From Escherichia coli (GTDB taxonomy: Bacteria; Pseudomonadota; Gammaproteobacteria; Enterobacterales; Enterobacteriaceae): a stretch of 64,000 bases of DNA. Shown here in pieces: positions 1,343 to 44,800 of this stretch (positions are counted from its first letter, which is position 1; each line of letters opens with the position of its first letter). The position numbers were made by a program, and so were the translations under genes. The stretch is taken from assembly GCF_044324875.1 (NCBI RefSeq), contig NZ_CP172185.1; one strand, written 5' to 3'. The notes beneath the pieces are model-generated. The model was not told where the DNA came from. It searched no databases and saw only the letters and a program-made list of their open reading frames with translations.

Positions 1343-2074
1343 ATGAAAAAAGGGAAAGTACGTAGCGCGTTGATAGCATTAGCCGTGCTGCTGGCCGGTT
1401 GTTCCAGTAATGCGCAGTATAATAGCAGTGCATCGGGCAATGTCGGCACCGCCTGGGGTGGGGATGTGCACTCATCGGTTCAGGGCGTATCTGCTGAGCG
1501 AGCCTGGCGCGATCCGGCAGAGATGATCGTTATTAGTTATTCGACTAATGTTCCTTCCGGCTATGACCGCGTTTATAGCATTCGTATTAACGAACTGGAA
1601 TATGCTATTCGCGATGGTAATTTTAATTCTCTACCTATTACGCGTTTTTATGATTCATCCAATAATGAACCACGCTATATTGTCCATGCCAGAGTCGGAA
1701 TGAATTATCAATTATATGTCCGTAATTACAGTCGTAACACCAACTACGAGATCGTTGCTACGGTTGATGGCCTGGATGTGCTGAACGGCAAGCAAGGTTC
1801 GCTGAATAACAACGGCTATATTGTGAATGCCGGAGATTCATTAGCGATTAAAGGATTCCGCAAAGATAAACATACCGAAGCGGCTTTTCAGTTCGCCAAC
1901 GTTGCTGATTCCTACGCAGCCAATTCGGCGCAAGGCGATGTGCGTAATACCGGGGTAATCGGCTTTGCCGCCTTTGAATTACAAGGTCCGACGCAAAACG
2001 CGCTGCCGCCGTGCTCTGGACAAGCCTTTCCGGCAGATAACAATGGCTATGCGCCGCCACCGTGTCGGAAATAG
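1343..2074 (+). CDS. Putative lipoprotein of unknown function (243 aa), apparently accessory
   Basis: ATG preceded by a GAGGGA ribosome-binding site; N-terminus MKKGKVRSALIALAVLLAGCSS has a lipobox (LAGC); AT-rich, N/Y-rich codon usage unlike flanking speA/speB; two Cys near the C-terminus. Confidence 0.6.
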   Translation: MKKGKVRSALIALAVLLAGCSSNAQYNSSASGNVGTAWGGDVHSSVQGVSAERAWRDPAEMIVISYSTNVPSGYDRVYSIRINELEYAIRDGNFNSLPITRFYDSSNNEPRYIVHARVGMNYQLYVRNYSRNTNYEIVATVDGLDVLNGKQGSLNNNGYIVNAGDSLAIKGFRKDKHTEAAFQFANVADSYAANSAQGDVRNTGVIGFAAFELQGPTQNALPPCSGQAFPADNNGYAPPPCRK

Positions 2075-6218: not shown

Positions 6219-6243
6219 GGGCCGCGAAAGCGGCCCTTTTTTT
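6219..6243 (+). terminator. tktA intrinsic terminator
   Basis: gggccgcGAAAgcggccc hairpin followed by a T7 tract; the stop codon of the convergent SPFH gene lies within the T tract. Confidence 0.7.
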
Positions 6244-7150
6244 ACTTAGTAGAGATAAACGGAACTGTACTGCCGGGGATCATGGTATCGGGCAGCTTAC
6301 CGTCCCAACGCTCTGCAGTGGTTAGGGCAACAAGTCCGGGATTATCCCGCAGAGCTTCACCGCGCAGGCGGATAGCTTCTGCTTCAGCCGCACTTTTTAA
6401 ACGAATAGTTTCAGCCTCTGCCGCGCCTCTTACGCGAATAGTCTCAGCTTCTGCTTTGGCTGCCGCCAGTTTACTGTCTGCTTCTGCCTGGGCCTGAGTT
6501 ACCGCTATTTGCGCCTGGATTTTCTCTGTTTCCAGATTTTGCTTACGTGTGGCAATGGCGACTTCTGCTTTCATTCGGTCTTCAATCGACTTTTCATAAG
6601 CGTCAGAAAAATCAATATTTTCAATCTGAACACCATCAATCACCACCGGGCCAACGACGGCTTTACGCATTGCATTTTGCAGATCCTGAACGAGTTTTGT
6701 ACGATCCTGTACGGCGCTGATGGCGGTATATTGGCCGAAAACGTTCTCCAGTTGAGTTGGCAACTGACGGACAATCAGACGATCTTTTAATGCTTCAATG
6801 GTGTTGTAGGTGGTATAAACCGCGCCTGCTTCTGAAGGTTTAATGTGGAAGCTGACTGATACTGTCATTTGTGCCGGTTGCTGGTCGCGGCTGTAGGCCT
6901 GTAATCCCTGATAAACCACAGCCTGATTACGCGTGGAAATTTTCTCCACGCTTTCCATAAAAGGGATCTTAAAACCCAGCCCCGGCTCGGCAACTTTCAC
7001 GATTTTTCCGTAGCGCAGCAAAATGCCGCGTTCACCTTCATTAACGGTGTAATACGAGAGAAATGGCAGCACAACCACGGCAAGCACGCCAATGACGATA
7101 GCAATAGATTTTTGTGGGCGAAATGAGGTTATTGAAACAGGTGCTTTCAT
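6242..7150 (-). CDS. Band-7/SPFH (prohibitin/HflC-like) membrane protein, apparently accessory
   Basis: 302 aa from ATG at 7150 with an AAGGAAG ribosome-binding site; N-terminal hydrophobic anchor (IAIVIGVLAVVVLPFL); C-terminal Ala/Glu-rich coiled coil with three roughly 11-aa tandem repeats. Confidence 0.7.
   Translation of the reverse strand: MKAPVSITSFRPQKSIAIVIGVLAVVVLPFLSYYTVNEGERGILLRYGKIVKVAEPGLGFKIPFMESVEKISTRNQAVVYQGLQAYSRDQQPAQMTVSVSFHIKPSEAGAVYTTYNTIEALKDRLIVRQLPTQLENVFGQYTAISAVQDRTKLVQDLQNAMRKAVVGPVVIDGVQIENIDFSDAYEKSIEDRMKAEVAIATRKQNLETEKIQAQIAVTQAQAEADSKLAAAKAEAETIRVRGAAEAETIRLKSAAEAEAIRLRGEALRDNPGLVALTTAERWDGKLPDTMIPGSTVPFISTK
6360..6470. repeat. Three tandem ~33-bp repeats inside the SPFH gene
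   Basis: Repeated ...gcgaatagtctcagcttctgc... units encoding AEAETIRVRGA / AEAETIRLKSA / AEAEAIRLRGE. Confidence 0.45.
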
Positions 7151-7186
7151 ATGAATCTTCCTTGAGTAAAGTGGGGAATATGTCAC

Positions 7187-15433: not shown

Positions 15434-15462
15434 AGCGCGCTTTTAAAGCACGCACTTTTTCA

Positions 15463-15592
15463 TACTCTAAATAATTCGAGTTGCAGGAAGGCGACAAGAG
15501 AGTGAATCCCATGAGCTTACATAAGTAAGTGACTGAGGTGAGCGAACGCAGACGCAGCACATGCAACTTGAAGTATGACGAGTATAAGGCCC
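15463..15592. repeat. ERIC (IRU) element in the pgk–fbaA intergenic region
   Basis: Contains the ERIC core gtgaatccc..gagcttacataagtaagtgactg.ggtgagcg; near-identical inverted copy at 28519–28645. Confidence 0.85.
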
Positions 15593-16758: not shown

Positions 16759-16858
16759 CTGATGCGCTACGCTTATCAGGCCTACACGTATCCTGCAATA
16801 TATTGAATTCGCAGGTTTTTGTAGGCCGGATAAGGCGTTCACGCCGCATCCGGCATGA
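16759..16858. repeat. REP/BIME cluster (two REP units in opposite orientation)
   Basis: gcctgatgcgctacgcttatcaggcctac and gtaggccggataaggcgttcacgccgcatccggca. Confidence 0.8.
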
Positions 16859-17966: not shown

Positions 17967-19010
17967 TTAACGCATTGTTTCATCGAGTATATTGGCAACT
18001 TTTTGCATGACTTCCCCGGCTTTCTCCACGCCTTCCTTATTTTGCTTTTCTACCCACTGTGCTTGTTCTTGCTGATAACCGATCGCTTTCTGCCAGGCGT
18101 CCAGCCCTGATTTTTTCAGATAGCGAACCTGTGCACCTTCCTGCTCAAGCGTTTTTACCATGCTGATCAGGTTGTTATCTAATGCCTTGCCCAGTGCTTT
18201 CTCGGTTGTAATGGCAGCTCGTTGAATAGCCTCACGATCTCTGTTATCAAGGTTTTCCCACGATTGTTTATTCATTACCAACAGATAAACATGACCAAGC
18301 CAGAGAGAAGGTGAGAGCAACACATTCGGCGCAGCACGTTCAGCATGGATGTCATATCCGCTATCGAGATTGACCATTAAACCATCCAGTTTTCCATCCA
18401 TGAGTGCTTTAGTTATTTGATCATTCCACGGTAAAGTTACGGTTTTTGCCCCCGTATGAGTTAAATAAGCCCGATGCCAGAAACTGGCTGTTCGCCAGGT
18501 GGTTCCCTGAAGCGCAGTCAATTTATCAATGGGCCTGGTAGAGAAAAAGCCTACCGGGTAGCCAAGGAAAAACTGTAAATTCACGATATTGTTACGCTCA
18601 AGTTCAGCGTTAAATTCGGGAATTTCCGCATATACGCGACGAAAGAATTCTACCTGACTGGCTCCATGATCCGGGCCAATAGCAAAGCTCTTGAAGATTT
18701 GATGAAGCGGCAATTGTTTCGCGGTGTATTCCGGCACCACTATACCCATATCAGCTTTGCTGCCATCGCTTATTGTCGTCAGAGCGTCATAGCTGATGGC
18801 GGTTTCACCGTTCCAGTGTGGTTCGATTTTCAAACGCCCCTGCGACTCTTTTTCAATTTCTGCAAAAAATATCTCTTTAATTATTTGTGTACGCATTCCC
18901 CCGTAGGGTTCATGGTCTGTATAACGAAGAATTTTTTCAGCAGCAAAAATCGAGGGAGATAACAGAAGAAATCCTGATAAAAGAAAGGGGAGTAATTGTC
19001 GGTAGTGCAT
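17967..19010 (-). CDS. Orphan TRAP-type (DctP-like) periplasmic solute-binding protein, apparently accessory
   Basis: 347 aa; signal peptide MHYRQLLPFLLSGFLLLSPSIFAAEK; DctP-like motifs (HVYLLVMNKQSWENL, LDGLMVNL); AAGGAA ribosome-binding site; no DctQ/DctM permease genes nearby. Confidence 0.65.
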   Translation of the reverse strand: MHYRQLLPFLLSGFLLLSPSIFAAEKILRYTDHEPYGGMRTQIIKEIFFAEIEKESQGRLKIEPHWNGETAISYDALTTISDGSKADMGIVVPEYTAKQLPLHQIFKSFAIGPDHGASQVEFFRRVYAEIPEFNAELERNNIVNLQFFLGYPVGFFSTRPIDKLTALQGTTWRTASFWHRAYLTHTGAKTVTLPWNDQITKALMDGKLDGLMVNLDSGYDIHAERAAPNVLLSPSLWLGHVYLLVMNKQSWENLDNRDREAIQRAAITTEKALGKALDNNLISMVKTLEQEGAQVRYLKKSGLDAWQKAIGYQQEQAQWVEKQNKEGVEKAGEVMQKVANILDETMR

Positions 19011-19125: not shown

Positions 19126-19760
19126 GTGATATCTTATTACTTTCAAGGTCTTGCACTTGGGGCGGCTATGATCCTACCGCTCGGTCCACAAAATGCTTTT
19201 GTGATGAATCAGGGCATACGTCGTCAGTACCACATTATGATTGCCTTACTTTGTGCTATCAGCGATTTGGTCCTGATTTGCGCCGGGATTTTTGGTGGCA
19301 GTGCGTTATTGATGCAGTCGCCGTGGTTGCTGGCGCTGGTCACCTGGGGCGGCGTAGCCTTCTTGCTGTGGTATGGTTTTGGCGCTTTTAAAACAGCATG
19401 AGCAGTAATATTGAGTTAGCCAGCGCCGAAGTCATGAAGCAAGGCAGATGGAAAATTATCGCCACCATGTTGGCAGTGACCTGGCTGAATCCGCATGTTT
19501 ACCTCGATACTTTTGTTGTTCTGGGCAGCCTTGGCGGGCAACTTGATGTGGAACCAAAACGTTGGTTTGCGCTCGGGACAATTAGCGCTTCTTTCCTGTG
19601 GTTCTTTGGTCTGGCTCTTCTCGCTGCCTGGCTGGCACCGCGTCTGCGCACGGCAAAAGCACAGCGCATTATCAATCTGGTTGTGGGATGTGTTATGTGG
19701 TTTATTGCCTTGCAGCTGGCGAGAGACGGTATTGCTCATGCACAAGCCTTGTTCAGTTAG
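19126..19760 (+). pseudogene. argO: Arginine exporter ArgO (LysE family) split by a 1-nt frameshift
   Basis: Two ORFs (91 aa and 120 aa) that concatenate to the 211-aa ArgO sequence; frame switches at the overlapping ATGA at 19398–19401. Confidence 0.7.
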
Positions 19761-20760: not shown

Positions 20761-21657
20761 ATGGACATTTTTATTTCGAAAAAGATGCGCAATTTCATTT
20801 TATTAGCGCAAACCAATAATATTGCCCGGGCGGCAGAAAAAATCCATATGACGGCTTCGCCATTTGGCAAAAGCATTGCCGCGCTGGAAGAACAAATTGG
20901 CTATACGCTATTTACCCGCAAAGATAATAATATCAGCCTCAATAAAGCCGGGCAGGAACTGTATCAAAAACTGTTCCCGGTTTATCAACGACTTTCTGCG
21001 ATTGATAATGAAATCCATAACTCAGGACGTCGTTCACGAGAAATTGTGATAGGCATAGATAATACTTATCCGACCATTATTTTTGATCAGTTGATTAGTC
21101 TCGGAGATAAGTACGAAGGCGTGACCGCCCAGCCAGTTGAGTTCAGCGAAAACGGCGTTATCGATAATCTTTTTGACCGTCAGTTAGATTTTATTATCTC
21201 CCCACAGCATGTATCTGCACGAGTTCAGGAACTGGAAAATCTGACTATCAGTGAACTACCACCGCTGCGATTGGGCTTTCTCGTTTCTCGCCGTTATGAA
21301 GAGCGTCAAGAGCAAGAGCTGCTTCAGGAGCTGCCCTGGCTACAAATGCGCTTTCAGAACCGGGCCAACTTCGAAGCAATGATTGATGCGAATATGCGAC
21401 CTTGTGGGATCAATCCAACCATTATTTATCGTCCCTACAGTTTTATGGCCAAAATCAGCGCCGTGGAGCGCGGACATTTTCTGACGGTGATCCCGCATTT
21501 TGCCTGGCGACTGGTGAATCCGGCAACGCTGAAATATTTTGATGCACCGCACAGGCCGATGTATATGCAGGAATATCTTTATTCAATCAGAAATCATCGT
21601 TATACCGCCACGATGCTTCAGCATATTGCTGAAGATCGTGACGGGACGAGTCATTAA
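20761..21657 (+). CDS. ygfI: LysR-family transcriptional regulator
   Basis: 298 aa; N-terminal helix-turn-helix; position matches ygfI; 3' end overlaps the convergent scpC by 4 nt. Confidence 0.85.
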   Translation: MDIFISKKMRNFILLAQTNNIARAAEKIHMTASPFGKSIAALEEQIGYTLFTRKDNNISLNKAGQELYQKLFPVYQRLSAIDNEIHNSGRRSREIVIGIDNTYPTIIFDQLISLGDKYEGVTAQPVEFSENGVIDNLFDRQLDFIISPQHVSARVQELENLTISELPPLRLGFLVSRRYEERQEQELLQELPWLQMRFQNRANFEAMIDANMRPCGINPTIIYRPYSFMAKISAVERGHFLTVIPHFAWRLVNPATLKYFDAPHRPMYMQEYLYSIRNHRYTATMLQHIAEDRDGTSH

Positions 21658-23132
21658 CCCAGCATCGAGCCGGTTGCAATTAAATTACGGTGTAAATCGA
21701 AGACGTGGCTAAGATCGTGGTGAATATGTCCGCCGGGCGCATTTTCCAGATAGCGATGCAGATAATCCCGATACATAGGATGTGCACAATTATCAATGAT
21801 AGTGCGGGCGCGTTGAAGCGGGGAAAGACCACGCAGATCGGCGATCCCTTGTTCGGTGATGATCACTTTGACGCTGTGTTCGCTGTGATCAACATGGCTG
21901 CACATTGGCACGACGGTTGAGATCTTGCCTTCTTTAGCAATCGACGGGGCCATAAAGATCGACAGATACGCGTTGCGTTCAAAATCGCCGCTGCCACCGA
22001 TGCCGTTCATCAGATCGACCCCGGCTACGTGCGTTGAGTTGGCATGCCCGTAAATATCAAACTCCAGGCCGACGTTCAGAGCGATGACGCCCAGACGACG
22101 GATGATTTCCGGGTTATTGGAAATCTCCTGCGGACGCAACACAATGCGGCTGGCAAAGTAATCCATATTGTCGTAAATCTTGCGCAGGGAATCGGCCGAG
22201 ATAGTCAGGCTGGAGGCGCTGGCCCCGCTGATTTTGCCCGTTTCCAGTAAATGCACCACCGATTCCTGTAGCACTTCCGAATACATCATAAACGGAGGAA
22301 TTTCCGGATTTTCCCCCAGACGCGCCATTACCGCATTATTGATGTTGCCCACGCCACTTTGCAGCGGCAGAAATTCCGGCGGAATACGCCCATGCGCCAT
22401 TTCCTGCAACAAGAACGTGACCACGTTATCGGCAATCTGCTGGCACATGGGATTTTGCTTATCCAGCATATTACCGGCGTCGGGCAAGTTGGTTTCCACG
22501 ACGGCGACAATCTTTTTCGGATCGATTTGCACATAGCGGGTACCGACGCGATCCATTGCATGGAAGATCGACACGCTATTGCGCCGCGGTGGCGCGCCAG
22601 GAATCACAATATCTGCCAGTTCTGCAACGCGCGGATCGTGATAGTGATTGAGTTCAATGATCACTTTCTTCGCCCGCAGCAGCCAGGTCGGCGCATTACC
22701 GATCCCGCTGGTTAACCAGACTCGACCATCCGGTGCCAGTGCCGATGCTTCAATGACGGCAACATCAATTTCGCCGAAGAAACCGTAATTGACCATTTGC
22801 GCCACTTCGCTCAAATGCAGGTCAACGAAACTCACCGCGCCCTGATTGATCTTTTTACGTAAACCGGACGATGTTTGATATGGCGCACGCTAGGAAACAG
22901 CATCGGCGTCAGAAAGTACATCGTCAGCGGCGGCGCTGATTGACGCCCCCGTCAGCAGGCGAATTTGATACGGCTTTTTGGCCTCATGCTGTTCGTTAGC
23001 TCTGCGGGCAATCGCGGTGGGTAAGGCTTTCGGCGAACCCGCTGGGGTAAAGCCGCTAAATGCCACCATGTCGTTATGCTGGATAATTTCTGCCGCTTCA
23101 TCGGCGGTCATCCTTGTCCACTGAGTTTCCAT
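21654..23132 (-). pseudogene. scpC: Propionyl-CoA:succinate CoA-transferase interrupted by an in-frame amber codon
   Basis: N-terminal 80 codons (METQWTRMTADEAAEIIQ...DADAVS) end at TAG (minus strand, 22890–22892); the same frame continues with the rest of ScpC; the full span is 492 codons. Confidence 0.75.
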
Positions 23133-23155
23133 TTTAACTCCTTCGTTCGCAGGGA

Positions 23156-23941
23156 TTAATGACCAACGAAATTAGGTTTACGTTTTTCGAGGAAAGCGTT
23201 CATCCCTTCCTGGTAATCTTCGCTGTCATAAACCGCGCGGCGCATCCCCTGAATACGTTCAAATTCATCGGAGTTCATGGTGTGTGCTTCGCCCAGTACA
23301 CGCAGCTCTTCTTTGATAACGGCAATGGCTAACGGCGCTTTCTCAGAGATGTGGTGCGCCATTTGTAAGGTGAAATCTTCCAGTTCTTCCACTTCCACAA
23401 CATGGTTGAGGATGCCGACAGCCAGCGCGCGCTGGGCGGTGATTGGCGAAGCGGTAAAAATCAGCTCTTTGACAATGTGGAAGCCCGCGTCGCGGGTCAG
23501 GTTGTGAATGCCGACCAGGTTATACGGGACGCCGAGGTTTACAGGTGTCATTGAGAAGGTTGAGGTACTGGCGGCGATGATCAGATCGGAACTCATGATC
23601 ATTTCAAATGCGCCACCCCAGACACTACCTTCCACCATCGAAATGATCGGTTTCGGGAATTTTTGGATCATGCGGGTGATTTGACGCAATGGATCATCAT
23701 AGGAGAGCGGATCGCGACCGCCAGACGGCAGTTCGTGAATATCGTGACCTGCGGAGAAGACTTTGGATCCACTCGGCGCGCGCAAAATGATACAGCGAAT
23801 TTCCGGCCGGTTGAGATCGCTTAACGCCTGCATAAGATCATCAATAAAGACTTTACTTAAGGCATTAAGTTTTCGGCCATAGTTAAACTCAATGACCGCC
23901 ACTTTGTTGATAGTGACAACGTTCACATACTGATAAGACAT
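23156..23941 (-). CDS. scpB: Methylmalonyl-CoA decarboxylase
   Basis: 261 aa starting MSYQYVNVVTINKVAVIEF; enoyl-CoA hydratase family. Confidence 0.93.
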   Translation of the reverse strand: MSYQYVNVVTINKVAVIEFNYGRKLNALSKVFIDDLMQALSDLNRPEIRCIILRAPSGSKVFSAGHDIHELPSGGRDPLSYDDPLRQITRMIQKFPKPIISMVEGSVWGGAFEMIMSSDLIIAASTSTFSMTPVNLGVPYNLVGIHNLTRDAGFHIVKELIFTASPITAQRALAVGILNHVVEVEELEDFTLQMAHHISEKAPLAIAVIKEELRVLGEAHTMNSDEFERIQGMRRAVYDSEDYQEGMNAFLEKRKPNFVGH

Positions 23942-23951
23942 AAAAATTCCT

Positions 23952-24947
23952 TTAATCAAAATATTGCGTCTGGATAAATTCACTGAGCTGCCGCAGGCCG
24001 GTGCGCGGTGAGAGCGTATTGTTTTTGACCGCTAAAAGCGTCTGGCGGTAATAGCGATCGAAATCTTCATTCGCGAACAGGTGATTCAGTACTTCTTCTT
24101 CGGTTTGTTTACGCAGCCATTCCACCGATTGTTGTTGCCGCACTTGTTGTAATCGACCACTGGCAGTTAGCGCGGTTTTGAAGTCGATGATGGCGTGCCA
24201 GATCTCATCGATTCCACGTTTTTCCAGTGCGCTACAAGTCAGAACCCGTGGCTGCCATTCGTCGTATTTACGTCGCAGAATATGCAGGGCACTCTCGTAC
24301 ATATGCCGGGCAATGGCGATATTGGTATGGTTATCGCCATCGTCTTTGTTGATAACGATCAGATCTGCCACTTCCATCAGCCCCTTTTTAATGCCCTGCA
24401 GATCATCGCCGCCACCGGCAATTTGCAACGAGATAAAACAGTCCACCATGCGGGCGACTTCCGTTTCTGACTGCCCGACGCCAACCGTTTCGACAATCAC
24501 TACGTCATAACCCGCCGCTTCGCATAACAGCATTAATTCCCGCGCTCGCTGACTGGCACCGCCCAGATGGCCGGAGGAGGGTACCGGGCGAATAAACGCC
24601 GCCTCGGCACGCGCCAGGTCATTCATGCGGGTTTTATCCCCGAGGATGCTACCGCCAGTGACCGGGCTGCTAGGATCGACCGCAATAACCGCAACCTTTA
24701 ATCCATCACGAATCAACAACATGCCAAAGGCTTCAAGAAAGGTACTTTTCCCCGCGCCGGGTGTGCCGGTAACGCCCAGTCGCAGGGCGTTACCACAGAA
24801 CGGCATAATGGCATCAAGCAGCTGCGTACTTAGCGCCTGATGACGCGGGTGACGGCTTTCTACCAGCGTCATGGCCTGGGCGAGCGTGGCACGCTCACCC
24901 TGACGTAAGCGGCGAATACTTTCTGCCAGCGTGGCTTCATTAATCAT
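23952..24947 (-). CDS. argK: Methylmalonyl-CoA mutase-associated GTPase (MeaB-like)
   Basis: 331 aa; P-loop GTPGAGKST; overlaps scpA by 8 nt. Confidence 0.93.
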
Positions 24948-27084
24948 GATGCTGGCTTATCAGATTCAGTACGTCGCGCACGCTGTCGAGCATAGGTGTA
25001 CCTGGACCATAAATCGCCGCCACGCCGCGCTCTTGCAGGAAGGCGTAATCCTGCGGCGGAATGACGCCACCCGCGACCACGCAGATATCTTCGCGTCCCC
25101 ATTTTTTCAGCGCTTCGACCAGTTCCGGGATCAGCGTTTTATGACCGGCAGCCAGTGAAGATGCGCCCACTACGTGAACGTCGTTTTCTACTGCCAGGCG
25201 GGCGATCTCTTCAGGTGTAGAGAACATCGGGCTTAAATCTACGTCGAAACCGAGATCGGAATAGGCGCTGGCGATCACTTTTGCGCCGCGATCGTGCCCA
25301 TCCTGGCCCATTTTGGCGATCAGAATGCGCGGGCGACGACCATTGTCGGCAAGGAACTGCTCCGTTTGCGCAACAATGGCATCGAACTCGGTGGCCGATT
25401 TCTCAGACTGATGATAGCTTTGCGCAATCACGCCGGTAACACACTGGCTTGGCACCAGATAACGGTCAAATGCCGCTTCCAGCGCATCGGAAATTTCACC
25501 AAGCGTTGCGCGAACGCGAGCGGCATTAACAGCGGCAGCCAGCAGGTTTTCGTTATGCTGTGCGGCGTGAGTCAGGGCGTTCAACGCGGCGGTTACGGCG
25601 GCATCATCACGGGTGGCGCGAATGCGTTCCAGCGAAGCAATTTGCTCGTTACGCACCATCACGTTGTCGATCTCAAGTACATCGGTTTCGTCTTCGTGAT
25701 CCAGTTTGTACTTGTTGACACCAACGATGACACGCTTGCCCTGGTCGATCAACGACTGTTCGCGCGCGGAAGCCTCTTCGATCATTCGTTTTGGCAGACC
25801 TGCTTCGATCGCTTTCGCCATGCCACCGGCTTCGTCGATCTGTTGGATAATGGCTCTGGCTTGTTTGACGATTTGATCGGTCAGCGATTCAACGTAATAG
25901 GATCCGGCCAGTGGATCGACGGTGCGGCAGAGTTCTGATTCTTCCTGAATGATGATCTGGGTGTTGCGGGCAATGCGTGCTGAGAAATCGGTAGGCAAAC
26001 CAAGCGCTTCATCAAAGGCGTTGGTATGCAGTGACTGAGTACCGCCCAGCGTTGCAGCCAGTGCTTCAATGGTGGTGCGGATAACGTTGTTATACGGATC
26101 CTGTTCAGTCAGGCTCCAGCCTGAGGTCTGGCAGTGGGTACGCAGCGCCAGTGATTTCGGATCCTGTGCGCCAAATCCACTGACCGCTTCGCTCCATAAA
26201 TAACGTGCCGCACGCAACATGGCGACGTTCATAAACAGATCCATGCCAATGCCGAAGAAGAACGACAGGCGAGGAGCGAAGTCATCAATTTTCAGCCCGG
26301 CGGAGATTGCTGCTTTGATGTACTCAATCCCATCAGCGAGCGTAAATGCTACCTGCTGCACGCAGTTGGCACCCGCTTCACCCATATGGTAACCGCTGAT
26401 ACTGATGGTATTAAATCGCGGCATGTTGCCGGAACACCAGGCGATGATGTCTGCGATAATACGCATTGACGGTTTTGGCGGGTAAATATAGGTGTTGCGG
26501 CAAAGATACTCTTTGAGGATATCGTTTTGAATGGTGCCGGTCAGTTTATCGGGTGTAACACCTTGCTCTTCTGCGGCGACAATATAAAACGCCAGTACTG
26601 GTAGTACTGCGCCATTCATGGTCATCGAAACCGACATTTTATCCAGCGGGATCTGGTCGAACAGGACTTTCATATCTTCCACGGTGTCGATAGCAACGCC
26701 CGCTTTGCCGACGTCGCCCGCCACGCGCGGGTTATCGGAGTCGTAGCCTCGGTGGGTGGCAAGGTCAAACGCAACGGAAAGACCTTTTTGCCCGGCGGCC
26801 AGGTTACGGCGATAAAAAGCGTTGGACTCTTTTGCTGTTGAAAAACCAGCATACTGACGGATGGTCCACGGTTGGGCGGTATACATAGTGGCACGCGGGC
26901 CACGAACGTAGGGCGGCAAACCAGGAAGGGTACCTGTCACCTCCAGATTATCGAGATCGGCTTCGGTATACAGCGGCTTGATGGCGATCCCTTCCGCGGT
27001 TTGCTGAACCAGCGAGTCGACAGTTTTCTCCCGACGGCTCAATTCCTTGTTGGCAAGCTGTTGCCACTCCTGCACCTTAGACAT
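24940..27084 (-). CDS. scpA: Methylmalonyl-CoA mutase
   Basis: 714 aa from [15 protein letters not shown]; full-length match to Sbm/ScpA. Confidence 0.95.
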
Positions 27085-27286
27085 TATTTGCTCCGTAAAA
27101 CGCAATCAAAATGAGGGTATTTGCGCTTACGGTGAGCTTTTTACGTGGGTTTGTCGCCAGCAAAAAAATGCATTCAGACGTCGTTTTTTGCCGCCTGAGA
27201 TTTGTCTATTTTGTGATGTGATTCAAGGAATACAAAAAGAAGTGAGGATAACGCCTGATATGTGCTATCAGGCATTATTTGATGGA

Positions 27287-28518: not shown

Positions 28519-28645
28519 GTATATACTCGTCATACTTCAAGTTGCATGTGCTGCGTCTGCGTTCGCTCACCCCAGTCACTTACTTCTGTAAGCTCCTGGG
28601 GATTCACTCTCTTGTCGCCTTCCTGCAACTCGAATTATTTAGAGT
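28519..28645. repeat. ERIC (IRU) element in the argP–rpiA intergenic region
   Basis: Reverse-complement copy of the element at 15463–15592, with a few mismatches. Confidence 0.85.
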
Positions 28646-28684
28646 ATAATGCGTGTGAAATTTCATACCACAGGCGAAACGATC

Positions 28685-30989: not shown

Positions 30990-31140
30990 ACGATGGCAGG
31001 GCAGCATGGTGCTGTAACGGTAAAGCCCTCACCGAAGCGAGGGCTTGAAGGAGAAGGGTTATGATGCGACTTGTCATCATACTGATTGTACTGTTACTCA
31101 TAAGTTTCCCAGCTTATTAACAGTCAGTCTCAGGGGAGGA
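30990..31140 (-). ncRNA. sibC: SibC antisense sRNA (antitoxin of ibsC); boundaries approximate
   Basis: Expected from the position between serA and ygfA and the presence of the ibsC ORF on the opposite strand; ends not determined from sequence. Confidence 0.4.
31061..31120 (+). CDS. ibsC: Type I toxin IbsC (19-aa hydrophobic peptide)
   Basis: ATGATGCGACTTGTCATC... encodes MMRLVIILIVLLLISFPAY; followed by a gggaggaGTCATcctccc hairpin. Confidence 0.8.
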   Translation: MMRLVIILIVLLLISFPAY

Positions 31141-31220
31141 GTCATCCTCCCTTACCCTTACTCACTAAATTAGGTTAAAGAATCAACGATGTCAATCAGG
31201 GCGATGCAGGTGTGTCGCCC

Positions 31221-31843: not shown

Positions 31844-32027
31844 GGAATCTCCGAGATGCCGCCGCAGGCTGTAACCCTTGAACCCTTGGTTCAAGGTGAA
31901 TGTGTCGTCGCAGTTTTAAGGCTTCTCGGACGGACCGAGCATGCTCACCAACCGCGGAGCGCCACATTCTTGTGGTATGAAATATCGGCTCAGGGGACTG
32001 GCCCGCTTGCGAACATCTCAGAGAAAT
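31844..32027 (-). ncRNA. ssrS: 6S RNA
   Basis: Reverse complement matches 6S RNA (5'-ATTTCTCTGAGATGTTCGCAAGCGGGCCAGTCCCCTGAGCC...GGAGATTCC-3'); immediately upstream of fau as in the ssrS-ygfA operon. Confidence 0.9.
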
Positions 32028-41888: not shown

Positions 41889-41959
41889 CTTGTTAATAAA
41901 GTGCGCTTTGTGTGTTTCGACTGAGGCGTAATATAAAATATTGCGAGCTCAATATATTA

Positions 41960-41998
41960 AAAGAGTGCCAGGCCTGATGAGCGTAGCGCATCAGGCAC
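41960..41998. repeat. REP element
   Basis: gccaggcctgatgagcgtagcgcatcaggc palindromic unit. Confidence 0.7.
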
Positions 41999-42007
41999 AT
42001 CGGCTAA

Positions 42008-44624: not shown

Positions 44625-44800
44625 TGTGCATTAGTAGGCCTGATAAGACGCGTCAGCGTCGCATCAGGCATCGGATCGCAACTGCCGGATGCGGCGTGAA
44701 CGCCTTATCCGGCCTACGGGCCGCGTCCTTGGTGTGATAAAGGCACCAAATCCCAGGCATGATAAGACGCGTCAACGTCGCATCAGGCAATAGTCGCCGG
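44625..44800. repeat. BIME cluster (three to four REP units)
   Basis: Repeated gcctgataagacgcgtca(g/a)cgtcgcatcaggc and gccggatgcggcgtgaacgccttatccggcctac units. Confidence 0.85.

Follow-up and report, generated by a model that had tools for sequence, protein, structure and literature searches.

An inherited amber allele of scpC in Escherichia coli and its probable origin at a recurrently mutated Dcm site

The scpC gene in the Escherichia coli DNA analysed here (a single stretch of 64,000 nucleotides, called the window) is interrupted by an in-frame amber codon at position 81. Our preferred reading, to which we assign a probability of about 0.72, is that scpC is a genuine, vertically inherited pseudogene and that its amber codon arose by deamination of 5-methylcytosine at a Dcm site that is hit recurrently. 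The pseudogene status is nearly certain. The origin by Dcm deamination with recurrent mutation is probable, methylation at the site being presumed; the dcm and vsr genes lie outside the 64-kb window. The amber codon makes scpC a real, inherited and ordinary pseudogene, of a kind that is already known and annotated in RefSeq, and a literature search on scpC pseudogenes returned nothing relevant. What is added here is only the mechanism, an amber hotspot at a Dcm site, together with the finding that the allele is both recurrent and clonally inherited. The Dcm-site origin is a point that the earlier note on this DNA did not contain, and neither did it contain the recurrence of the allele across E. 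coli or its existing RefSeq annotation as a pseudogene.

Reading frame, predicted product and operon of scpC

The scpC (ygfH) pseudogene, which corresponds to propionyl-CoA:succinate CoA transferase, occupies positions 21654..23132 on the minus strand. Translation of the minus strand from 23132 to 21654 gave a single frame of 493 codons (492 codons and the stop, broken at codon 81), which starts with ATG, has AAGGAG on the 5' side of the start, and ends with a normal TAA. It contains one internal stop, a TAG at codon 81 (minus strand, 22892..22890), in place of the TGG that codes for Trp81 in scpC of K-12 MG1655 (b2920). The nucleotide change is G242A in the coding strand, i.e., C>T in the plus strand at 22891, and the nucleotide directly 3' of the TAG is C. 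The alignment with b2920 is colinear, with 20 substitutions in 1,479 nt (98.6% DNA identity) and no indels. Past the TAG the frame is conserved, and the sole further amino acid difference from the common protein is D121E, which also occurs in other strains.

In the program-made list of open reading frames, scpC is split in two. The 80-aa N-terminal fragment (22890..23132, minus strand) is the only protein predicted from the native start. It is followed in the same frame by a 393-aa remnant ORF (21654..22835, minus strand), which begins with GTG, is without ScpC residues 1-99 and is called a separate gene by gene finders. The earlier note had described a continuous frame that matches ScpC except for a TAG at 22890-22892 of the minus strand, had given a Trp codon, TGG, for this place in K-12, and had expected truncation after about 80 residues. 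Translation and alignment bear out this description, including the coordinates and the strand. The reference is without TAG, as the b2920 alignment confirmed, and exactly 80 of the 492 residues precede the stop.

When codon 81 was read as Trp, the conceptual ScpC protein scored 754.7 bits with TIGR03458 (the YgfH subfamily; cut-off 658.7) and 602.3 bits with NF053853 (ScpC; cut-off 500). The Pfam domains PF02550 and PF13336 were placed at residues 1-213 and 317-461, respectively, and the nearest solved homologue is 2nvv (E = 4e-166). In the case of the 80-aa fragment, only 77 of the 489 profile positions were covered, with 88.9 bits, which is far under the cut-off. The uninterrupted frame over both domains that is expected of a family member is absent from the window gene owing to the TAG at codon 81. 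The window scpC is a pseudogene within the ScpC/YgfH succinate CoA-transferase family and not a functional member of it. The predicted 80-aa product misses most of the N-terminal CoA-transferase domain and the whole C-terminal domain, and from this truncation we infer that the propionyl-CoA:succinate CoA-transferase function has been lost.

The gene is the final one of the scpA-argK/meaB-scpB-scpC (sbm) operon, whose order and spacing are as in K-12 and in strain 104. The other three genes, all on the minus strand, are intact. They are scpB, coding for methylmalonyl-CoA decarboxylase (23156..23941; 261/261 aa, 100% identical to K-12), argK/meaB, coding for the mutase-associated GTPase (23952..24947; 331/331 aa, 98.8% identity), and scpA/sbm, coding for methylmalonyl-CoA mutase (24940..27084; 714/714 aa, 99.3% identity). 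The gene of the LysR regulator srsR (ygfI) is also intact; it lies on the plus strand (20761..21657), is convergent with scpC, and, as in K-12, shares 4 bp with it at the 3' ends of the two genes. There is no gene of the operon 3' of scpC, and the stop is therefore without a polar target.

Inheritance of the amber codon

Over 21,182 bp the window is 100.000% identical to contig NMMD01000008.1 of assembly GCA_002467655.1. The argO gene, located 3 kb from the scpC TAG, has a 1-bp deletion in the window, and the 91-aa product of the broken gene was used as a lineage tag to retrieve Logan assemblies. Four run assemblies (SRR31121697, SRR31121307, SRR21141798, and ERR3328720) matched 7.6 kb of the window at 99.97-99.99% identity; both the scpC CTAGG and the argO deletion are present in each of them. 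Since these two changes are present in four independent runs, they are inherited clone markers and not errors of a single assembly. The sequencing error that the earlier note had considered as a threat to its claim is thus contradicted by four separate runs of one clone. Apart from scpC, 56 K-12 proteins were compared with the window, and 53 of them are intact. Of the other three, argO has a frameshift, ygfF is absent, and the 19-aa IbsC gave no tblastn hit. Shigella-like genome decay was considered and rejected on the basis of these 53 intact proteins and of the three insertions relative to K-12, which carry ordinary accessory genes and not IS elements.

The same data bear on a broader version of the error hypothesis, namely that the TAG was introduced by sequencing, base calling or assembly, some platforms being prone to miscall Dcm motifs systematically. 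The change does sit precisely within a Dcm motif, a context that is error-prone for some nanopore base-callers, and a second broken gene, argO with its 1-bp deletion, is found only 3 kb away. However, both changes are common to four independent runs of the clone, the allele has been assembled hundreds of times, in many projects and from many assembly sources, a transition is present at just 1 of the 214 Dcm inner positions of the window (described below), and the other compared proteins are undamaged but for the three named. This explanation is largely refuted, and we give it almost no credence. It is also very unlikely that full-length ScpC is still made in useful amounts through suppression of the amber codon, whether by a tRNA of the supE kind or by a high natural level of read-through. 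The frame beyond the TAG is intact, with D121E as the one extra amino acid difference, and a C follows the stop codon, both of which would suit read-through. Against it, an intact downstream frame is what is expected of a young pseudogene, the NCBI annotation pipeline calls the identical allele a pseudogene, and the 64-kb window has no tRNA gene. Amber suppressors are typical of laboratory strains rather than of wild isolates. An Rfam scan detected no RNA element overlapping the amber site.

A decayed Dcm site at codon 81 and recurrence of the allele

The TAG lies in a decayed Dcm site at 22890..22894, which now reads CTAGG in the plus strand and whose ancestral form is CCAGG (CCTGG in the coding strand). 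The changed base, plus-strand 22891, is the C at the inner position, the one that Dcm methylates. At codon 81 the K-12 context is TTTCCTGGCGT and the window context is TTTCCTAGCGT. The wild-type codons TCC TGG hold CCTGG, i.e., CCWGG; K-12 and all TGG alleles compared have CCTGG, and the window has CCTAG. An inner C>T change in an ancestral CCWGG, as expected of a Dcm hotspot, was therefore found at scpC codon 81.

In CCWGG the inner C is the target of Dcm methylation, and the T:G mismatches that result are repaired by Vsr. Amber hotspots in lacI at CCAGG Dcm sites were reportedly described by Coulondre, Miller, Farabaugh and Gilbert in 1978. In natural E. coli and Salmonella, according to Cherry 2018 (cited from PMC9520237), the inner Dcm cytosine undergoes C>T changes 8-fold faster than other cytosines. 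Using K-12 and strain E200086 for polarisation over 41 kb, we obtained a set of 107 ancestral CCWGG sites with 214 inner C/G positions. The C>T change at plus-strand 22891 (ACGCCAGGA>ACGCTAGGA) is the sole window-private transition among these 214 positions. Transitions in the window lineage amounted to 1/214 (0.47%) at Dcm inner positions, as compared with 0.68% at other G/C positions. A general C>T excess at Dcm inner cytosines was not observed in any of the three lineages over the 41 kb (window 1/214, K-12 2/214, and E200086 0/204), a comparison that involves small numbers, long branches and changes filtered by selection. Consequently, an 8-fold hotspot is invisible in the long-term divergence of this region. 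The absence of transition enrichment argues against a base-calling artefact and adds no support for the hotspot.

The distribution of the allele was determined with a 61-mer centred on the TAG. In this comparison of scpC across strains, which the earlier note had proposed as a check, the 61-mer was exact in only 5 of 4,309 complete E. coli genomes. The remaining 4,304 match it at 95-99% identity, and each non-exact match listed is one base off (98.4%); about 4,300 complete genomes are thus taken to have TGG at codon 81. In all five exact-match genomes (FORC_042, EH53, HCP6S3_I2, HCP30S3_I2, and GMF065), scpC is annotated by NCBI RefSeq as pseudo with an internal stop. The TAG is spread in them over three gene haplotypes that are 9-22 nt apart. 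The window scpC is 15-17 nt from the five TAG genomes and 8 nt, the TAG change included, from the TGG strain 104, whose scpC is the nearest of those compared. As the window is nearer to a TGG strain than to the TAG carriers, the alleles are probably independent. When nt 242 was reverted in the three TAG haplotypes, each became 100% identical over 1,479 bp to TGG genomes (10 genomes for one haplotype, and 12 of the 12 listed matches for each of the other two). Each of these three amber alleles is therefore one step from a living ancestor type. This test covers the three other backgrounds only; a search of the complete genomes for a TGG counterpart of the window haplotype found none, the best match being 99.5%.

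A wider sample was drawn from public contigs. The exact 80-aa product is present on 192 contigs and its K-12-like N11 version on 65; clonal sampling inflates these numbers and the block counts given below, neither of which is a count of events. The 26 sampled TAG carriers form 13 haplotype clusters, so that the amber allele appears on at least 13 scpC haplotypes. Site 242 requires 15 Fitch steps in a tree of 44 scpC sequences built by neighbour joining, whereas the other common polymorphisms require 3 in the median and no more than 8, and site 242 is the most homoplasic one in the gene. Identical tracts round site 242 have medians of 270 bp in carrier pairs, 271 bp in carrier/non-carrier pairs, and 269 bp in non-carrier pairs. 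Carriers diverge from one another within 6-61 bp of the site, and the TAG was found on different local haplotypes within +/-75 bp. Independent recurrence above that of other sites, which a Dcm hotspot predicts, was observed at site 242, to which recombination may still contribute.

As controls, we used the truncated products of other one-transition nonsense changes within the first 153 codons, and the loci behind the larger counts were inspected. At codon 81, TAG and TGA were found at 26 and 1 sampled loci, and in 5 and 0 complete genomes, respectively. The TGA change, G243A, gives the same 80-aa product as G242A and lies opposite the unmethylated outer C of the Dcm site. Since the two products are identical, selection is blind to the difference between these changes, whereas methylation is not. 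The adjacent unmethylated position at codon 81 is thus hit much less than the methylated one, as expected of a Dcm hotspot. In the case of Trp139, a TGG outside any Dcm site, 3 TAG and 3 TGA real stops were found. Trp150, the only other in-frame TGG within a Dcm site, gave 4 TAG and 3 TGA among the places shown. Index blocks with contigs of 10 kb or more numbered 177+62 for W81*, 66 for W150*, 4 for W139*, 2 for Q97*, and 1 for R153*. Two of the control products proved misleading. The Q97* product was a gene truncation at a contig end in 10 of the 10 places shown, and the 152-aa product of R153*, present on 293 contigs, was a contig-end artefact in 9 of 10. Because counts of truncated products are contaminated by contig ends in this way, we based the comparison on inspected loci and on contigs no shorter than 10 kb. 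The several independent stops at Trp139, which is not in a Dcm site, indicate that any scpC null allele can recur.

On the preferred reading, the inner C of the ancestral plus-strand CCAGG would have been 5-methylated by Dcm and deaminated spontaneously, giving a T:G mismatch. The mismatch would have escaped very-short-patch repair by Vsr, leaving CTAGG and turning TGG into TAG in frame. Translation from the native start would then end after 80 of 492 residues, with scpA, argK, and scpB unaffected, and the same site would have been struck repeatedly in E. coli. In most conditions the sbm operon is silent or dispensable, which may be why the allele persists.

Recombination, selection and comparison with known systems

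Recurrence could also be produced by gene flow. The amber allele may have arisen once or a few times and spread by homologous recombination onto many backgrounds, including that of the window, with no hotspot involved. Several observations show that recombination is active in this region. The operon of the window is 99.7% identical over 5,452 bp to that of CFSAN018748, being near-identical in scpA-argK-scpB, and nearly all the differences are 15 sites in scpC; the window scpC is a recombinant block relative to its own scpA-scpB. Two loci (L033 and L034) share a W150 null haplotype of two changes (ACA-TGA) and differ at 17 other positions. In the gene tree, sites other than 242 need 3-8 Fitch steps, and the nearest markers that distinguish the backgrounds allow tracts of about 270-310 bp. 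Nevertheless, we consider recombination in place of a hotspot unlikely. All three tested backgrounds match extant TGG genomes over 1,479 bp once reverted, tract sharing round the site is no longer in carriers than in non-carriers, and carriers already differ 6-61 bp from it. Moreover, the 15 steps at site 242 exceed the maximum of 8 elsewhere, and the strong asymmetry of TAG over TGA at codon 81 is a prediction of a methylation hotspot.

The other question is whether loss of ScpC is positively selected in some niches, W81* being one convenient null among others. Many distinct lesions of scpC would fit this. In addition to the stops described above (W139*, W150*, and R153*), we met an IS insertion, the loss of 1 bp from the CCTGG at codon 81, and a 78-aa frameshift form that is present on 83 contigs, with source names that include DEC4D and 08BKT055439. 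Furthermore, 1,152 of 5,425 complete genomes (about 21%) cover less than 80% of the sbm operon, and 6 of the 7 such genomes listed retain about 20% of it. On the other hand, TAG and TGA at codon 81 are equivalent in product, yet they stand at 26:1 and 5:0. The allele is found in only 5 of the 4,309 gene-bearing genomes, which is better explained by turnover of a neutral or slightly deleterious allele than by a sweep. The sbm operon has been called silent, and its pathway is not energetically favourable (PMC5512728); a silent operon suffices to explain tolerance of the lesion. The earlier note had stated that the scp operon is poorly expressed, which agrees with this literature, and its suggestion of relaxed selection remains plausible in view of the silent operon, the operon-poor genomes and the other independent scpC lesions. 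Adaptive loss of scpC is possible and not needed, and as an explanation of the allele we regard it as improbable. Selection and a hotspot are compatible, and both can hold. A stronger combination, in which methylation makes codon 81 a soft spot throughout the species, the last step of the sleeping-beauty-mutase pathway is disabled there repeatedly in independent events, and the losses are selected in some niches, is doubtful indeed; if it were true, scpC W81* would be a natural example of a Dcm hotspot that supplies adaptive nulls.

In this strain scpC should be annotated as a pseudogene, and the succinate-to-propionate cycle would miss its CoA-transferase step. Dcm sites can make identical nulls in unrelated lineages, and such recurrent nulls can mislead SNP phylogenies, association studies, and inference of shared ancestry from shared pseudogenes. 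The case also provides population-level support for decay of the sbm operon across E. coli.

In comparison with K-12 scpC/ygfH (b2920), the window gene shares the locus, the neighbours, the length and the frame; codon 81 is TGG in K-12 and TAG in the window, which leaves only an 80-aa fragment from the native start. The five RefSeq carriers named above have the same nonsense change as the window (CCTAG) and an otherwise intact operon, on scpC haplotypes that differ from that of the window by the 15-17 nt given above. In the genomes with operon deletions, the same pathway has been lost by another route, which supports its dispensability. These genomes retain remnants annotated as "methylmalonyl-CoA mutase family protein" and "acetyl-CoA hydrolase", whereas the window retains all four frames with one base changed. 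Unlike what is expected of Dcm hypermutation, the long-term divergence of the window is without a general excess at Dcm sites. The closest parallel is provided by the lacI amber hotspots and the data of Cherry 2018. As in scpC, an inner C>T change in CCWGG gives a CTAGG amber, the change is recurrent, and the adjacent unmethylated base is spared. The lacI hotspots came from a mutation assay, whereas for scpC the case is built on natural variation; the gene is chromosomal and dispensable, and methylation of its Dcm site is putative.

A second disrupted gene and the lineage of the window

The arginine exporter gene argO (19126-19760, plus strand) is a second pseudogene in the window. A 1-bp deletion adjoining 19398 turned GCAATG into GCATG, so that from codon 92 onwards the reading frame is shifted and meets a premature TGA at 19399-19401. 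The gene is unbroken in K-12, strain 104, E200086 and CFSAN018748, and an exact search with a 61-mer spanning the deletion matched none of 4,923 complete genomes. The resulting 91-aa product was found in 57 index blocks, and at all the places listed it was accompanied by the scpC split, the in-frame amber codon that interrupts the last gene of the sbm operon. The two lesions were checked together at the DNA level, and both were present in four independent runs as well as in the source assembly.

From 11654 to 32835 (21,182 bp), the window matches the 105-kb contig NMMD01000008.1 of the NCBI assembly GCA_002467655.1 with 100.000% identity. In the 24-kb BLAST comparison, no complete E. coli genome was closer than about 98.5%, and the lineage of the window is therefore without a close representative among complete genomes. 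The same search returned dozens of places per genome, which may be due to a repeat of about 126 bp, similar in size to the ERIC/IRU element. Its two copies lie in the rpiA-argP (28522-28647) and pgk-fbaA (15462-15586) intergenic regions.

Variation and loss of scpC in other strains

Many other lesions inactivate scpC across E. coli. One of them removes 1 bp from the CCTGG in which the window has the TAG, and it leaves a product of 99 aa. Others are an IS insertion, a form truncated to 87 aa and the stops W139*, W150* and R153*; these cases come from the related loci L072, L074, L077, L030-L036 and L039-L043. The sbm operon was covered at less than 80% in 1,152 of 5,425 complete genomes, and most of the low-coverage rows listed were operon remnants of only about 20%.

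Exact searches for truncated proteins suffered from heavy contamination with genes interrupted by the end of a contig, as seen at the related loci L020-L029 and L049-L058. An apparent 152-aa ScpC product, present on 293 contigs, ended at a contig end in nine of the ten places listed, and its cut point, scpC nt 458, is flanked by polymorphic sites at 457 and 459. For an apparent 96-aa product, the contig end was found in all ten places listed. Such artefacts call for caution whenever pseudogenes are counted from predicted proteins.

The operon in the window (21654-27105) is 99.7% identical across 5,452 bp to that of CFSAN018748 (locus L068). Fifteen differences are located within the 1,479 bp of scpC, and scpA-argK-scpB is therefore almost identical. 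The scpB/scpC junction is the site of a recombination breakpoint.

Substitutions at Dcm sites and RNA elements

At the inner C/G of ancestral CCWGG, we found four transversions private to the window (15512, 19505, 25501 and 38110), that is, 4 of 214 positions versus 50 of 21,130 other G/C positions (Fisher p = 0.002). The corresponding counts were 2/204 in E200086 and 1/214 in K-12. Transversions may be in excess at methylated cytosines, or the value for the window lineage may have arisen by chance.

A scan of the window at the Rfam gathering score gave no matches near scpC. It detected 6S RNA (31844-32027) and the SibC antitoxin RNA (31045-31195), both on the minus strand and at the same positions as in K-12, as well as ES036 (16778-16820, minus strand) and the REP-derived element naRNA4 (44637-44714, matched on both strands).

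Gene content compared with K-12 and E200086

Three ORFs of the window are not present in K-12: speA and speB are separated by a lipoprotein-like ORF of 243 aa (1343-2074, plus strand), tktA and cmtB by a 314-aa ORF (6242-7186, minus strand), and mscS and argO by a 347-aa gene for a TRAP substrate-binding protein of the DctP type (17967-19010, minus strand), among whose neighbours no transporter partner was seen. In place of the K-12 ygfF, the window has 119 bp (41889-42007). E200086 shares all four of these differences from K-12, and its gene at the position of the 314-aa ORF is annotated as a prohibitin family member. Unlike the window, E200086 carries an additional ECF-transporter island.
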